From the NCBI RefSeq assembly GCF_055900595.2, contig NZ_CM148325.1: a DNA stretch of 64,000 nt, one strand, 5' to 3'. The position numbers and the translations under genes are program-made. Position 1 is the first letter of the stretch, and each line of letters begins with the position of its first letter. Shown here piece after piece: positions 23,205 through 30,396 of the stretch. The notes below the pieces were generated by a model. That model worked only from the letters and a program-made list of their open reading frames with translations. It did not search any database and had not been told where the DNA came from.

Positions 23205-23320
23205 TTAAAAACGATATCCTGCTGAGAACATAAACACCCACGGATCAAGACGTACGCTATCGTGTTGCTGCGCACCACCCAGCTTATAATTTGCGGTGGT
23301 GTCAATATCCATGTACCAGA
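23205..23320 (-). pseudogene. ompW: ompW 3' fragment (last ~38 codons); the gene is interrupted by prophage integration
   Basis: Minus-strand translation ...VWYMDIDTTANYKLGGAQQHDSVRLDPWVFMFSAGYRF-stop matches the recalled OmpW C-terminus; similarity stops at about 23320, beyond which the sequence is AT-rich phage DNA. Confidence 0.8.
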
Positions 23321-23671
23321 CTGGCAGGTTTTAAAAAATCAAATAAGATATTGTATCTGAAAGAAAAAACAGGATTTTGAGATGCTTTTTTATACCGTTT
23401 TTCAGCGTTTTTAACTGCCTGATTTTATTGAAATCTTTTTTAGTTTTGCAGAAAGGATTTTTTGATCGATTGCTTTAATTTTATACATTCCTGATAACGG
23501 AAATTTTTTACCCGTTGACAGTTTTTATCCTCCGGGGCTATATTTCCAACGCGTCAGCAAAATCTGGCGTCGGGATTGGAACCCCGGATGTTTACGGAGC
23601 GATATGAGACGCGCCCGCGTCTTTTTTCATATCGTTTGCACAGTCACATTCGCGATTTATGGCGGGCTGTG

Positions 23672-23697
23672 TGGGGGAGCCGAAAGGCTCGCCGGTT
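23672..23697 (+). repeat. 26-bp direct repeat copy 1 (TGGGGGAGCCGAAAGGCTCGCCGGTT)
   Basis: Exact 26-bp match to 24412..24437; contains a GAGCC-GAAA-GGCTC tetraloop hairpin. Confidence 0.7.
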
Positions 23698-23791
23698 TCC
23701 GTACCCGGTAGTTCCAACCCCGCACAGTTCGCCACCATGATGATTGGAACCTGAAGGTGGCGATAATTTTCAAATGTACGGAGTTATCGTT

Positions 23792-24352
23792 ATGCCCACT
23801 CAAATTTCTGTCGACACTCTTCCTGCAATCACCCACAACCAGGTCCCCGTTATTACAACTGAACTTCTGGCGCAGTTATACGGAACAAAAATCAAAAACA
23901 TTTCTGATAACTTTCTGAACAACACGACGCGATTCGTGGTAGGAAAGCATTACTTTAAAATTGAAAAAAACGAATTACGCGAGTTTAAGAACAGACCCGA
24001 AACAATCGGGTTAGTTGGTAAAAATGCCCGCTCCCTTATCCTCTGGACAGAACGTGGCGCAGCCCGCCATGCCAAAATGCTCGAAACCGATCAGGCATGG
24101 GAAGTGTTCGAAAAACTGGAAGACTGTTATTTCAGCCAAAAACAACCACCAGCAACACAAAACTCACCCACCCCAAATGATGGATGCGCATTACTGATCC
24201 ACTTTGATAAACACGGTCAGGTAGAGTTCACAGAAAAAGTCCCCGCCGATGCGATGGTATGCACTCTGGAACGGTTTAAATTTTATCTGGAGCAACACGG
24301 CTGGCTCGTTGCCCGTAAAGAACAACTGGTGGAAAGGCTGATGCAGCTTTAG
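23792..24352 (+). CDS. ORF6N-domain phage regulatory protein (antirepressor-like)
   Basis: ORF track 23744..24352; start set at MPTQISVDTLPAI preceded by GGAG; N-terminal motif PVITTELLAQLYGTKIKNISDNFLNNTTRFVVGKHYFKI resembles the ORF6N/Rha-like DNA-binding domain. Confidence 0.6.
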   Translation: MPTQISVDTLPAITHNQVPVITTELLAQLYGTKIKNISDNFLNNTTRFVVGKHYFKIEKNELREFKNRPETIGLVGKNARSLILWTERGAARHAKMLETDQAWEVFEKLEDCYFSQKQPPATQNSPTPNDGCALLIHFDKHGQVEFTEKVPADAMVCTLERFKFYLEQHGWLVARKEQLVERLMQL

Positions 24353-24411: not shown

Positions 24412-24458
24412 ATGGGGGAGCCGAAAGGCTCGCCGGTTCAACTCCCGCCAGCTCCACC
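24412..24458 (+). repeat. 26-bp direct repeat copy 2 fused to a tmRNA (ssrA) 3'-end-like sequence GGTTCAACTCCCGCCAGCTCCACCA
   Basis: Exact repeat of 23672..23697, then a 25-nt stretch matching my recollection of the E. coli ssrA 3' terminus (T-arm, acceptor 3' strand, CCA). Confidence 0.55.
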
Positions 24459-24730
24459 ATTTTTGACAGGACTGCAACCGGACATCGACAATAAAAACAG
24501 ATAATTACGGACACTGACCAGACAACAAACAGACCTGAACAAGACAAAAATATACACGTGAAATGCACGTGCACTTTATAAAAACCCCAGATTTCACAGT
24601 CTGGGGTTTTTCTGTTTGTAAATAATGGTAACAAAAACACATCACCTTTTGGCGTTCCGTTCCTCTTGACACTGTTTATCCATACAGTTAAAAATAACAC
24701 TGTATACAAACACAGTGTAGAGGGATTTTT

Positions 24731-24979
24731 ATGCGTATTGAAATCTGTATCGCTAAAGAAAAATTCAGTAAAATGCCAAAAGGCTCTGTACCTGCTCTAC
24801 AACAGGAAATGTCTAGCCGTATCAGAAAACGATATGACGATGTGGAGGTTATAGTAAAATCCGCCAGTAATGACGGACTGACCATTTTAAGAGCCGTAGA
24901 TAAAGAAAACGCTCAGAAGTTCATACAGGAAACGCTGCAGGAAGTCTGGGAAACTGCTGATGACTGGTTTTTTCACTAA
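24731..24979 (+). CDS. DinI-family protein
   Basis: 82-aa [15 protein letters not shown]...[17 protein letters not shown]; the C-terminal ETWExADDWF motif is typical of DinI. Confidence 0.75.
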
Positions 24980-25362
24980 TCAGGACGTCAAATAAATAAC
25001 AACTGTAATTATTCTCTCCAAATTAACAATCTCTGTATACATACTCAGGCGTGTTCACGCATACAACACGCCTTTCTGATATTTAATTGTTTACAGAAAT
25101 ATTGCCGAATAAAAATATAAACCATAGTCTTAAAAAAATAATAATTCCACTATAGCTATCCCAGAACAACCAGTACAAATAATAAAAGACATATCACAGC
25201 AACACTCCACACTGACAGCGCAAAAATAAATGCCGCCTTTGTTATCTTCATATACAAGCAACCTGTCCTGATAATCACCAACTCATGTTTTATTCTTAAC
25301 CATTCGTCACAAATACAACAAAAAATAACAGCAGCAGCACCGATATCACAATATAAGATACA

Positions 25363-25818
25363 TTATTCAACACCTGAATCCCCCGCCGCTTCTCTCCCCT
25401 TTATAAAACGCCCCTTCCGGAATCCAGACCGCTGCAGTGCACGACGAAGATGACCGTATACCGTCTTGTCATTCTGCCCCGTCTCTTCTGTAATCTCCGC
25501 AATACTTAAACCTCTGTAATACCGGTTCAGTACCGCTCTGCGCTCTTCCAGCGTCAACACACCTCCGGCCGCTCTCAGATTCATCATCGACTTATTCAGA
25601 ATACAGCAGGCCTCTCCGGTAAAAAGAATACGAACAATATCTGTATACTCATCATCACAGAATACAAAATAATATCTGAATGACCTGCCTGACTGCACCC
25701 TTCTTCTGTCTGATATGGCATCTTCTATATATCTGATTCGACTGCTTACGGTTCCAAATATCTCTCGCAGGGCTTTTTCAAAATAAATATCTCTCGTCGC
25801 CAGGATTATATCCAGCAT
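25363..25818 (-). CDS. LuxR/GerE-type helix-turn-helix transcriptional regulator
   Basis: 151-aa ORF; C-terminal LTLEERRAVLNRYYRGLSIAEITEETGQNDKTVYGHLRRA resembles the GerE HTH; sits immediately downstream of the adhesin gene. Confidence 0.6.
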   Translation of the reverse strand: MLDIILATRDIYFEKALREIFGTVSSRIRYIEDAISDRRRVQSGRSFRYYFVFCDDEYTDIVRILFTGEACCILNKSMMNLRAAGGVLTLEERRAVLNRYYRGLSIAEITEETGQNDKTVYGHLRRALQRSGFRKGRFIKGREAAGDSGVE

Positions 25819-25879
25819 CTCTGTACCTCATTATATCCCGGGGGACTCCCCCCGGGACAGATATCTAAATCCTGACCTG

Positions 25880-27520
25880 TCAGAACTCAAAATTCACACC
25901 AGCATTCCACGATGCGGATGACCCACCTGCAGCAACTGCAACTTTTCCTGCCACATTCTCTGTGAAACGGTAGCCCACGCCCACCGCAATGGCCTGCTCA
26001 TCACGGTAACCACCAACGGCTGCTGTCGCGTTAAATTTTCCAACACTGTATGGCTGGAAAAGACCGGCCAGTGCCGCGCTCTGGGCTGCACTCTCCCTTA
26101 ACTCCTTCCGGTTCTCTTTAATCTGCTCCTGCATATTATTCATTCTCTCTGTCGCCATCTTCTGCCAGGCTTCCGTCAAATCCAGACGATGACTGTTATT
26201 CCTTATCGCTGCTGTATTTGAGGCTATTGCTGCATCCGTCTGCGCCACCGCTGCCGATGTGACTGCAATAATATCCCTGCTGAGTTCATCACGTACTGCT
26301 GTAACCTGACTGTCAGTATGAGCACGGGCATCTCTGTATACACCGCCTATCTCACCACGCAGACTGTCTCCCTCTGCCTTCAGTTCATCACGTACTGCTG
26401 TGACCTGACTGTCAGTATGAGCACGGGCATCTCTGTATACACCACCTATCTCACCACGCAGACTGTCTCCCTCTGCCTTCAGTTCATCACGTACTGCTGT
26501 GACCTGACTGTCAGTATGAGCACGGGCATCTCTGTATACACCGCCTATCTCACCACGCAGACTGTCTCCCTCTGCCTTCAGTTCATCACGTACTGCTGTG
26601 ACCTGACTGTCAGTATGAGCACGGGCATCTCTGTATACACCACCTATCTCACCACGCAGACTGTCTCCCTCTGCCTTCAGTTCATCACGTACTGCTGTGA
26701 CCTGACTGTCAGTATGAGCACGGGCATCTCTGTATACACCGCCTATCTCACCACGCAGACTGTCTCCCTCTGCCTTCAGTTCATCACGTACTGCTGTGAC
26801 CTGACTGTCAGTATGAGCACGGGCATCTCTGTATACACCACCTATCTCACCACGCAGACTGTCTCCCTGTGATTTCACTTCAACCCCAAGGTTGCGGGTA
26901 CGATTATCCAGCTCCACGACGAATTCTTTAACAGGGACTGTCTGAGCATTTCCGTCAGCCCTTCCGTCAGCAGTGATTCGGCCTGATGAATCCAGAACAA
27001 AATTCTGGCCTTCAACTACATTTTTATACAATGATGACAATCCCGATGTTGTATTACTAATTTTAATAAAATCCTCAGCGGTACCACCAGCATTAACAGC
27101 GGCGATATAATCATCCTTGTTTTCTGGCTTGATTATTTTTTGTAGTGATTCTTTTGTATCAACAATGGACTTTATATCTTCTGCTTTTATATTTCTGATG
27201 TTTTCGGCTTTTAATGCATCTGAGTAGATGGGGTAAGTTAGCAAATCCTGAGCAACAATATGCCTAGCATTCTCAGGAGCTGCTAATATAGCACGCGTAA
27301 TAGAATCATTCGGGACAATACGCCCTGTATTAGCTCCAGTAATAGTATTAATAAGATTAACATCATTACCTTTTGATATTACTGCCGCACCATTATCATA
27401 CAGAGTAACCTCATATCCATCTACATTAAAACTCTCTTCTGCCATAACCCCCACAGAGTAACATAACAGCGCACCGGTAACCGCCATTGCCAATACATTC
27501 TTTGCCATTATAAATTTCAT
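25880..27520 (-). CDS. YadA-like trimeric autotransporter adhesin (Eib immunoglobulin-binding-family-like)
   Basis: 546 aa; signal peptide; six tandem 33-aa coiled-coil repeats; C-terminal anchor [63 protein letters not shown] resembles YadA/Eib membrane anchors. Confidence 0.75.
26283..26872. repeat. Six tandem copies of a 99-bp repeat (two alternating variants) inside the adhesin gene
   Basis: GTCAGTATGAGCACGGGC recurs at 26312, 26411, 26510, 26609, 26708 and 26807 (period exactly 99); variants alternate CACCGCC/CACCACC. Confidence 0.9.
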
Positions 27521-27915
27521 ATGGTATATCCTGTTAAGAAGATTAAACTGTAACCCCCCCTGAATAAGCAGGCGAGATTCTTTTCCAGGATACCTTTCAG
27601 AGTCACCACTGCATTGATTTTAACAATCAATACAGTTAACATGGAATTATAGGATAAATGCACCCCGATAAAACAATATGAGCGTTCTTGTCCCCATATG
27701 TCAGCAGAGCATTCAGATATAGCTGTCAGAATAACCGTTTCCTACATCAGTCATTCATCACAGACTCAATTGTGAATCAGTTCACCTTTTTTGCAATTCC
27801 TTTATTGATCGAAAGCAGTTAATCACAGAAATTAATTACCGGAGTGAAAGCATTTGCTATGTAAACATTCCCAGAAGACATCTTCATGTTGAATATTATT
27901 CCCTTATTGACTACA

Positions 27916-27948
27916 CCCCTCTGACAGAATTTTCAGAGGGGTTTTTTT
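27916..27948 (+). terminator. Plus-strand intrinsic terminator-like hairpin between tfa and the adhesin gene
   Basis: CCCCTCTGA-CAGAATTT-TCAGAGGGG followed by TTTTTTT. Confidence 0.4.
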
Positions 27949-27955
27949 ATCAGTT

Positions 27956-28531
27956 TCACCATCCAACCCTGTACGCCAGAATGGTTTCACTGTCACTCAG
28001 TTCTGCTATTGCCTTTTTCATCTCCCTTTGCCTTATATGTATTTCAAGGCCTTTCCTGAACATCGCTTTACCAGCAGCATCACTCAGGGATATCAGTTCA
28101 TCTGCCGTCATCGGTACATCATTATTCTCTGCGTCCGTCCAGAAAAATCCTTCCGGCAACACACCGCCTCTGGCCGCTGATGCCGACATTCCAAGACGTG
28201 TCATGGCTTCCTTTCCATAATCCCATTTCCGTCCTCTGTGCTCAAAAACATACCCTGACGCCTCCATCGCATCACGCCAGGCATTTATCTCCGCGTTTTT
28301 CATCCTGCGTGCTTCTTCCACAGCCATATCATCATTTGCCCGGTACTCACCTACCGGCCCTGCATCACCTCTTATGCAGGCTTCAAATATTTCACGACCG
28401 TAAGACTCAGGATCATCCGCACTTGCTGTAAATACACATTCTGTTTCCGCGTCTGAAAACTTCACTATACAGTTTATGGTCGTATGACCCCTGTCAGCCC
28501 ACACTGGTGACGTGATTTTATCGACCTTCAT
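27956..28531 (-). CDS. Tail fibre assembly protein (lambda Tfa-like)
   Basis: 191 aa, immediately downstream of the side tail fibre gene; Tfa-like composition and conserved Trp/Asp pattern. Confidence 0.75.
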   Translation of the reverse strand: MKVDKITSPVWADRGHTTINCIVKFSDAETECVFTASADDPESYGREIFEACIRGDAGPVGEYRANDDMAVEEARRMKNAEINAWRDAMEASGYVFEHRGRKWDYGKEAMTRLGMSASAARGGVLPEGFFWTDAENNDVPMTADELISLSDAAGKAMFRKGLEIHIRQREMKKAIAELSDSETILAYRVGW

Positions 28532-28545
28532 TCATTTCTCCCCTG

Positions 28546-30396
28546 TCACCGTATTCTCTGAAACAGGCCCCAAATCGTCCCAATGATATTATTGACTGTC
28601 ATGTTAGTTGTGCATAACATCCATGTACCAAGCATATGATTGCCAAATAAAAAGCGGATATCTGTAAGTTTATCCGATGACGACGACACAATAACGGCCT
28701 GTCTGATACGATACCCGGGTATTTCACGGGTATTTGTTACCTCATGATTTCGTTCTATGATCCCCAGAACATAAGACCCCACGGAATAAACACTTCCGAC
28801 GCTCGCTGGCTGCCCCGGCTGTCCCTGCGGACCTGCCGGGCCGCGTGCACCTGTATCGCCCTTTAGTCCCTGAGGACCTGCCGGGCCGCGTTCACCTGTA
28901 TCCCCCTTTAGTCCCTGTGGACCTGCCGGACCGCGTTCACCTGTATCGCCCTTTGGTCCCTGTGGGCCACGCTCCCCCTGGGCTCCCAGCTCTTTCCATT
29001 CAGACCAGGGGCCATTACCGGTAAAATTACCAGTAACAGTTCTTACGAACTTTCGTGGTGGGTTCCAGGTTGTATATTCATGCTGGCAATATCCCCATGC
29101 ACCAACTCTTACCTGAAGATAACCCGCTCTCTGAATCGGATAATTATTTTCTCGTGTAGCCCCACTGTCTGATGGCTGATAATAATCACCCTGATCGGTC
29201 ACTCGTCCCAGTCGGTTCAGATCACCATTCAGCAGTTGTCCACGGGCTGACTCTCCTCTTGGTCCCTGAGGGCCTTCCGGACCACGTGCACCTGTTTCGC
29301 CCTTTGCTCCCTGTGGACCTGCCGGGCCGCGTTCACCTGTTTCACCTTTTGGTCCCTGTGGACCTGCCGGGCCGCGTTCACCTGTATCCCCCTTTAGTCC
29401 CTGTGGACCTGCCGGACCGCGTTCACCTGTTTCACCTTTTGGTCCCTGTGGTCCTGCCGGGCCGCGTTCACCTGTTTCACCCTTTGCTCCCTGTGGACCT
29501 TCCGGGCCACGTTCACCTGTATCGCCCTTTAGTCCCTGTGGACCTGCCGGACCGCGTTCACCTGTTTCACCTTTTGGTCCCTGTGGACCTCCCGGATCTC
29601 CTTTATCCCCCTTAGGGCCTTTTTCTCCTCGCTCACCCTTTTCTCCCTTCAGACCCTGAGGGCCTTCCGGACCACGTGCACCTGTTTCGCCCTTTGCTCC
29701 CTGTGGACCTGCCGGGCCGCGTTCACCTGTTTCACCTTTTGGTCCCTGTGGACCTGCCGGGCCGCGTGCACCTGTTTCACCCTTTGGTCCCTGAGGACCT
29801 GCCGGGCCGCGTTCACCTGTATCGCCCTTTAGTCCCTGTGGACCTGCCGGACCGCGTTCACCTGTTTCACCTTTTGGTCCCTGTGGTCCTGCCGGGCCAC
29901 GTGCTCCTGTTTCACCTTTTGGCCCCTGTGGCCCGGTAATGCCTCTTTCACCACGTGCGCCGGTATCCCCTTTCTCTCCTCGTGGTCCCCGGGCAGATGC
30001 AGCTCGTTTCCGGGCTTCCTCCGCCTCAGATGCCGCGGACTCTGCTCTGTGCAGTATGGACTGCACCACAGCCTCCAGCTCTGACAACGCCTTCGGATAA
30101 TAAGGAGCATCTTCCATCTCCATCAGAAATTTATTCAGTGTTCCCGGTGAAGAATCCTCCCTGACCACGATATCTCCCACATACGAAGGACGGTAACCTT
30201 CTGTATTGAGTGTCACCCTGTATATTCCTGGCTCCACATCCATACTGTAACTCCCCGTCTCTTCCGGCATGCCATAAGCCACTGTCGTGGCGATGACTGT
30301 CTCGCTGGTTCTCTTCGCTTTCAGCTCAATAATGCATCCCGGTACCGGTTTTCCGGTTCCGTCCCTCAGCACGCCTGAAATTTTTACAGCCGCCAT
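28546..30396 (-). CDS. Side tail fibre protein with collagen-like Gly-X-Y repeats (lambda Stf-like N-terminus)
   Basis: 616 aa; N-terminus [29 protein letters not shown] resembles lambda Stf; long [19 protein letters not shown] collagen-like tracts. Confidence 0.85.

Follow-up and report, generated by a model that had tools for sequence, protein, structure and literature searches.

A dinI-like gene and an adhesin-linked helix-turn-helix gene at the att-proximal end of a lambdoid prophage in Escherichia coli ompW

In the Gifsy prophages, LexA control of dinI homologues and terminator-like palindromes upstream of these genes have been shown experimentally (PMC3121763). The Gifsy dinI gene belongs to an operon, dinI-gfoA/gftA-irsA, which lies near the replication genes, and deletions of dinI left induction unaltered (PMC3121763). 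In BP-4795 (dinI ORF85), PhiR12 and the Stx phages, a dinI-like gene is found in att-proximal position, as it is in the prophage studied here.

Trimeric adhesins of the Eib type are also encoded by prophages. Expression of EibG is regulated by growth conditions, according to two papers which mention no downstream ORF (PMC4352079, PMC5450701). In the P-Eib prophage records an ORF, ORF-156, has been present downstream of the eib adhesin genes since 2000; ORF-156A, C, D and E belong to the prophages P-EibA, P-EibC, P-EibD and P-EibE, respectively (GenBank AF151091, AF151674-6). ORF-156 was not mentioned together with eib in the literature searched. Since the two EibG papers are silent on a downstream ORF, an ORF-156-type gene is an obvious candidate regulator.

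Here we describe an interval in which counterparts of both systems lie side by side. The window, i.e. the whole stretch of 64,000 nucleotides analysed, covers trpDCBA-yciGFE of E. coli, where a lambda-like prophage has integrated in ompW. The interval is probably the place at which two independent modules of this ompW-inserted lambdoid prophage abut, an SOS-regulated dinI gene and an adhesin cassette.

The prophage arm and the dinI-like gene

The integration junction is marked by a truncated ompW fragment (approximately 23206-23331), about 1.4 kb to the left of the dinI-like ORF. The tail genes, J, the gene of a collagen-like tail fibre, and a 191-aa DUF4376 gene resembling tail fibre assembly genes are all encoded on the minus strand and point to this junction. 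The interval with the dinI-like and helix-turn-helix (HTH) genes is the arm between tail fibre and att, on the attR side by lambda gene order, and is an ordinary mosaic prophage accessory arm. The tail fibre gene (28546-30396, minus strand) contains long collagen-like GXY repeat tracts comparable to those of prophage tail fibres in pathogenic E. coli. Genes for tRNA-Lys(UUU) and tRNA-Met(CAU) are located side by side within the apparent prophage (57609-57762, minus strand) and are probably phage-borne.

The tip of the prophage carries what looks like an RNA-controlled antirepressor module (23538-24352, plus strand). Its predicted elements are the c4 targets a1/b1 (23538-23590; Rfam 44.6 bits, just under the gathering score of 46.7), isrK (23551-23627; Rfam 72.7 bits), a C4 antisense RNA (23655-23739; Rfam 78.9 bits), and the ant gene for an ORF6N antirepressor of 202 aa (23744-24352; phrog_2379 at 3.5e-93). 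The combination of c4 targets, isrK, C4 and ORF6N presumably is of the P1 immI type. It resembles the isrK-anrP locus of Gifsy-1 (PMC4825925). A near-consensus promoter was noticed at 23515-23544, and according to RefSeq ant is frameshifted in two close relatives; in the window the 202-aa ORF is open. The module is independent of the dinI and HTH genes. An earlier note on this DNA had counted ORF6N as the third regulatory gene of the arm; the antirepressor stands behind isrK and C4 RNA elements and forms a further module of its own.

The dinI-like gene (24731-24979, plus strand) encodes a protein of 82 aa, identified through Pfam, PHROGs and alignment with the E. coli DinI structure 1GHH. It matched the Pfam family DinI (PF06183) with an E-value of 8.6e-19 and 68.1 bits (cut-off 24.2) and phrog_189, 'RecA filament binding protein DinI', at 3e-26, and residues 1-79 of 1GHH align with its residues 1-81, which is the whole length. 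The acidic C-terminal helix, a DNA mimic, is conserved (motif ...LQE.WE.ADDWF, with LQETWESADDWF in the 1GHH alignment), so that the protein resembles E. coli DinI in fold family, size and this helix. It is 46% identical to what we take to be the K-12 DinI sequence, in agreement with the 1GHH alignment. With 68.5 bits it stayed under the cut-off of 111 of the NCBIfam DinI equivalog NF007893 and is therefore considered a DinI-like paralogue rather than an orthologue of chromosomal dinI. No second dinI-like sequence was found anywhere in the 64-kb window.

A DinI homologue at the attR-proximal end had been proposed in the earlier note, and the agreement of PF06183, phrog_189 and 1GHH as well as the att-proximal location of the arm bear this out. 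The arrangement is already known in lambdoid and Stx phages. In 133 phage records the extreme genome end is a DinI homologue, and homologues at 65-83% identity end many lambdoid and Stx phage genomes. With regard to dinI the locus thus offers nothing new, being another apparently SOS-controlled prophage dinI, though with a clean and conserved double operator.

This operator is part of a compact regulatory region. A predicted sigma-70 promoter (24666-24695, plus strand) combines the -35 hexamer TTGACA (24666-24671), an 18-nt spacer and the -10 hexamer AAAAAT, matches the consensus at 10 of 12 positions, and is conserved in three other phages. The first predicted LexA box, CTGTTTATCCATACAG, is placed within the promoter spacer (24672-24687) and is intact in three of the four aligned phages. 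The second, CTGTATACAAACACAG, covers the predicted transcription start (24700-24715), and its CTGT and ACAG arms are invariant in all four. These two perfect CTGT-N8-ACAG sites lie 28 bp apart, compared with a chance expectation of 0.85 for the whole 64-kb window. The promoter-operator block is common to BP-4795, PhiR12_2 and P-EibC, the sequences directly upstream being unrelated among them. The search for LexA boxes suggested in the earlier note was hence positive: two perfect predicted boxes are located upstream of dinI and overlap its promoter. As both are conserved and cover the promoter, the dinI-like gene is almost certainly SOS-induced through LexA, as judged from its sequence.

Upstream of the promoter, a terminator-like hairpin with a 14-bp stem and a T run (24580-24611, plus strand) would insulate it from transcription of ant. 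Downstream, a terminator of dinI was read from the sequence at 25048-25084 (plus strand), consisting of a hairpin (GGCGTGTT, 9-nt loop, AACACGCC) followed by the T-rich tract TTTCTGATATTT. Our terminator scan, which allowed loops of up to 8 nt, did not include it because of its 9-nt loop. The element separates the two convergent units and is not part of the adhesin cassette. Between the dinI stop codon and the terminator, the sequence CTGTATACATACTCAG (25033-25048), AT-rich in its centre, differs from a LexA box by one mismatch and may be due to chance or represent a weak third site.

In its predicted LexA box over a sigma-70 promoter and the terminator-like palindrome preceding it, the gene is similar to dinI of the Gifsy prophages (PMC3121763). 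In contrast to the Gifsy operon, the window dinI is monocistronic, is followed neither by an antirepressor gene nor by irsA, and is located at the att end rather than near replication genes. A further difference lies in its two predicted LexA boxes in tandem.

The adhesin cassette

The second module extends from 25144 to 28035 on the minus strand and comprises the 3'-end of the tfa gene, a hairpin, the adhesin gene, the HTH gene, and a small ORF. Several observations characterize it as a mobile cassette. Two parts of it are shared with non-prophage islands at 97-99.5% identity. The first (27789-28035) corresponds to the last 80 nt of tfa and the hairpin, the second (25144-26246 plus repeats) to the adhesin stalk and anchor, the HTH gene and the small ORF. 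In a pairwise comparison the adhesin promoter and head were completely different between the prophage and island contexts. The HTH gene is present in 183 of 5426 complete E. coli genomes, in up to six copies per genome, and in 163 of the 183 the small ORF, the HTH gene and the adhesin anchor are contiguous. Many of the listed cassette carriers are from poultry or humans.

The adhesin (25880-27520, minus strand) is a trimeric autotransporter of 546 aa with a YadA-type anchor and shares 43% identity with EibC over its C-terminal 200 aa. Its stalk contains six tandem repeats of 99 nt, i.e. 33 aa (26184-26975). In related genomes adhesins range from 421 to 546 aa with differing repeat numbers, and wholly different N-terminal heads and promoters are joined to the same anchor. 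Comparison of these sequences suggests that the number of repeats varies and that heads are exchanged. A possible promoter-operator specific to this adhesin variant was noticed upstream of the gene (27613-27650, minus strand), where the imperfect palindrome TTGATTGTTAAAATCAA comes after a perfect TATAAT.

The HTH ORF (25363-25818, minus strand; 151 aa) begins 61 nt after the adhesin stop codon on the same strand, with a GAGG Shine-Dalgarno sequence 7 nt before the ATG. Two hairpins are predicted in between, a G+C-rich one of 11 bp (25834-25859, minus strand) and a second one overlapping the adhesin stop codon (25864-25891), with -38.4 kcal/mol and a z-score of -3.1. Neither is followed by a U tract, which suggests that the HTH gene is expressed by read-through of the hairpin, at a level reduced relative to the adhesin. 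P-EibC has a canonical terminator before orf-156, unlike the window, where the hairpin at this place is without a U tract. Two different adhesin promoter regions linked to the HTH gene had no k-mer in common above the shuffle control, which speaks against a simple, conserved operator for autoregulation.

The cassette ends with an ORF for a hydrophobic peptide of 31 aa (MKITKAAFIFALSVWSVAVICLLLFVLVVLG; 25156-25251, minus strand), whose stop codon is 12 nt away from the edge. The ORF is annotated by some pipelines as an unnamed gene (approximately 200 contigs), and it accompanies the HTH gene in prophage and island contexts alike. In P-EibC and PhiR12_2 its place is taken by another small ORF, orf-60C (phrog_9340), which encodes a membrane helix. 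The peptide could not be aligned meaningfully with orf-60C, so that the two correspond in position only. The 31-aa product may be a small membrane protein or a toxin.

The HTH protein and its relation to ORF-156

The P-EibC record (AF151674) contains, in this order, orf-191C (DUF4376), a stem-loop, eibC, a stem-loop, orf-156C, orf-60C, eaaC, and an unannotated dinI homologue. The resemblance to the window concerns both position and sequence. As in the case of ORF-156, the HTH gene is located directly downstream of a YadA-type adhesin gene, which itself comes after a 191-aa DUF4376 gene, and is followed by an ORF for a small membrane peptide. The order tfa (DUF4376), YadA adhesin, HTH gene is common to P-EibA/C/D/E, the PhiR12 phages, prophages on the yehV side, and the window. 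In BLASTP, ORF-156C matched the HTH protein over the full length with 22% identity and an E-value of 8e-5. A profile of 22 ORF-156 relatives compared with the HTH protein by hhalign yielded a probability of 95.3% and an E-value of 2.4e-8 over 129 columns. The full-length alignment is colinear, with T8, Y12, E14, R40, D55, G68, L88, G114 and K118-T119-V120 invariant. ORF-156C represents phrog_6585, listed with 'unknown function' in PHROGs; a direct hmmscan of the HTH protein against phrog_6585 gave 3.4e-4 for the N-terminal part only. By these sequence comparisons the HTH protein is a very divergent member of the ORF-156 / phrog_6585 family, differing from the ORF-156 proteins in its match to Sigma70_r4_2, as those have no Pfam match, and in an identity of just 22%.

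This relationship emerged only via the P-EibC record and the profile comparison. Direct searches with the HTH protein in 5.8 billion clusters and 1.84 billion representatives returned only copies of at least about 90% identity and generic HTH matches, and in tblastn against phages no GenBank phage record was found to carry the gene. All members of the ORF-156 family come from E. coli, and a dN/dS of 0.14-0.25 indicates that the family is under purifying selection. Relatives without an adhesin occur in an Stx1a phage, in phage 2B8 and in the hpaBC island. In the hpaBC-side island of other E. coli, the relative is a solitary ORF of 164 aa (P0083, 391 contig-collection blocks) with a PerC-like gene nearby and no adjacent adhesin gene.

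It is unlikely that the HTH ORF is a decaying, non-functional hitchhiker of the adhesin 3'-end. The lack of directly detectable relatives below about 90% identity would be compatible with decay, and truncated versions are common in draft assemblies. Furthermore, the seven copies of the allele compared differ at three positions, all three of them non-synonymous and none synonymous, numbers too small for an analysis of selection within the allele, and in one inspected genome with a non-contiguous cassette an IS3 insertion parts the HTH gene from the adhesin gene. Against decay, the ORF is intact and full length in 182 of the 183 complete genomes, its best copy being at least 99% identical in 182 of them, and it has a good Shine-Dalgarno sequence. 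RefSeq also calls it intact, as 'sigma factor-like helix-turn-helix DNA-binding protein'. The HTH scores above the Pfam cut-off, the protein is homologous over its full length to a family that evolves under purifying selection, and its model folds confidently given the family alignment.

Structure prediction depended on this alignment. From the single sequence AlphaFold2 gave an unusable model (pLDDT 38). With the joint family alignment pLDDT rose to 75, with residues 1-130 well predicted as four beta-alpha units followed by three helices. The predicted domains are a receiver-like domain (aa 1-80) and an HTH of the sigma-4/GerE type (aa 87-130). In Foldseek searches the full-length model matched FixJ, RcsB, StyR and VpsT, the N-terminal domain matched receiver domains, and the C-terminal domain matched sigma-4 domains, GerE and the DNA-binding domain of NarL. 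In the receiver-like domain Asp55 is kept where strand 3 ends, and the acidic pair following beta1 reads TRD or TRN. At the sequence level residues 87-130 matched Pfam Sigma70_r4_2 (PF08281) with 31.1 bits (cut-off 25.7). The protein alone gave neither a GerE (PF00196) match at E of at most 0.1 nor a Response_reg match. The best match of the family profile to a solved structure was GerE (1FSE, E-value 4.3e-4), and one annotation pipeline labels the protein a NarL/FixJ response regulator.

The arrangement of a receiver-like alpha/beta domain before a GerE/sigma-4-type HTH is shared with NarL/FixJ response regulators and atypical orphans such as RcsB. Unlike the NarL/FixJ regulators, the modelled receiver has four strands only, lacking beta5-alpha5 and the conserved Lys, and thus is no complete (beta-alpha)5 receiver. 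The model also lacks the fourth helix of GerE domains, which serves dimerisation, as the C-terminal domain ends after the recognition helix. A comparison of the family with what we take to be the RcsB sequence (hhalign) revealed no significant similarity beyond the HTH register. PADLOC reported no defence-system match for DinI or either HTH protein. As the receiver is shortened, the HTH protein cannot be a canonical phospho-receiver. The designation 'canonical two-component response regulator' was rejected on account of the truncated receiver, as was 'sigma factor' on account of the absent region 2. In at least one defining feature the protein departs from each of the GerE, response-regulator and sigma families. 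According to the model it is best described as a pseudo-receiver combined with a sigma-4/GerE-type HTH. The earlier description as GerE-type or LuxR regulator directly downstream of the adhesin gene is hence correct in position and roughly so in architecture, whereas a standard LuxR/GerE protein is not supported.

An action on RNA polymerase rather than on DNA, by a free-standing mimic of sigma region 4 in competition for the beta-flap or an anti-sigma factor, appears improbable. Region 4 of ECF sigma factors provided the best single-sequence matches, Foldseek assigned probabilities of about 1.0 to ECF sigma-4 domains, several of them from sigma/anti-sigma complexes, and the modelled C-terminal domain stops after the recognition helix like sigma-4, without the GerE dimerisation helix. 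On the other hand, the protein has no match to sigma region 2, its N-terminal domain models as a receiver-like alpha/beta fold, the family profile prefers GerE, and the full-length structural matches are response regulators.

Small HTH regulators at the ends of adhesin operons are represented by MrpJ of Proteus and PapX of uropathogenic E. coli, which cross-regulate motility and belong to the Xre and MarR families, respectively. The window protein is comparable to these in position only, as a small HTH protein encoded at the 3'-end of an adhesin transcription unit behind a hairpin; its HTH family is a different one. We tentatively propose, as a possibility that is itself rather doubtful, that the HTH protein and ORF-156 / phrog_6585 constitute one unrecognised prophage family of pseudo-receiver/HTH proteins which are dedicated partners of Eib-type trimeric adhesins. 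If so, such regulators might, for instance, set adhesin expression or switch host motility or aggregation when the adhesin is made, and the cassette would have a third conserved component in the small downstream membrane peptide. In any case, the ORF-156 gene behind Eib-type adhesins gains a model-based fold assignment (pseudo-receiver plus sigma-4/GerE HTH) and evidence of purifying selection, and its family gains a highly divergent second branch that travels with the adhesin cassette.

Neighbouring modules at the att-proximal tip

In the earlier note the DinI homologue and the HTH protein were regarded as a regulatory pair. The distribution of the two genes contradicts this. The dinI gene adjoins the HTH gene in only 22 of the 183 genomes with the HTH gene. 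In approximately 160 of them the match starts exactly at window position 25144, the cassette edge, and no dinI follows. Four such loci were inspected and proved to be non-prophage chromosomal islands with the HTH gene directly behind a YadA-like adhesin gene and dinI absent. Within the window, the two genes are convergent and separated by the hairpin terminator described above. Since the HTH gene moves with the adhesin gene and the match ends at the cassette edge, the HTH gene belongs to the adhesin cassette and dinI to the phage backbone. The two are probably neighbours only because both are located at the att-proximal tip in this group of phages.

An SOS-coupled set of DinI, HTH protein and ORF6N that controls adhesin expression or prophage induction could draw on the predicted LexA boxes upstream of dinI. 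It could also draw on the recurrence, with diverged genes, of the order adhesin, HTH gene, small ORF facing a convergent dinI at att in PhiR12_2 and in prophages on the yehV (btsSR) side. The cassette is moreover located directly downstream of the late tail operon and co-oriented with it, so that post-SOS antiterminated read-in is conceivable. Owing to this orientation, late antiterminated transcription would be the only, and an indirect, route by which SOS could reach the cassette. Such a set is nevertheless highly unlikely, because most carriers of the cassette have no adjacent dinI, the cassette is devoid of a perfect LexA box, its only one-mismatch site (27748-27763) being at chance rate, the convergent genes are parted by a terminator and in P-EibC a 4-kb autotransporter gene lies between the dinI homologue and the ORF-156 unit, and dinI deletions in Gifsy did not alter induction (PMC3121763). 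The link to SOS concerns dinI only, and the proposed coupling of the adhesin to SOS through the pair is not supported. The simplest explanation of the recurrent adjacency is that both modules are the last before att, though a functional reason may also play a part.

With the interval read as two independent abutting modules, the following course of events may be envisaged. In the first module, LexA bound to the two operators over the promoter would repress the dinI homologue, and removal of LexA upon DNA damage would lead to synthesis of the small acidic DinI-like protein, which, like E. coli DinI, would be expected to bind RecA filaments and modulate their co-protease activity. The second module would be a moron cassette of the Eib type that encodes the adhesin, then the HTH protein, then the 31-aa membrane peptide. 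Transcription that passes the hairpin behind the adhesin gene probably yields small amounts of the HTH protein, which most likely acts as a DNA-binding transcription regulator of cassette or host genes.

A copy of the 3'-end of ssrA (tmRNA; ...GGTTCAACTCCCGCCAGCTCCACCA) was detected between the ant and dinI modules (24417-24459), despite the insertion of the prophage in ompW. Since the genome of the ssrA-type phage PhiR12_2 ends in the same sequence, the segment on the dinI side seems to be derived from an ssrA-integrating phage, and the copy would be an attP remnant.
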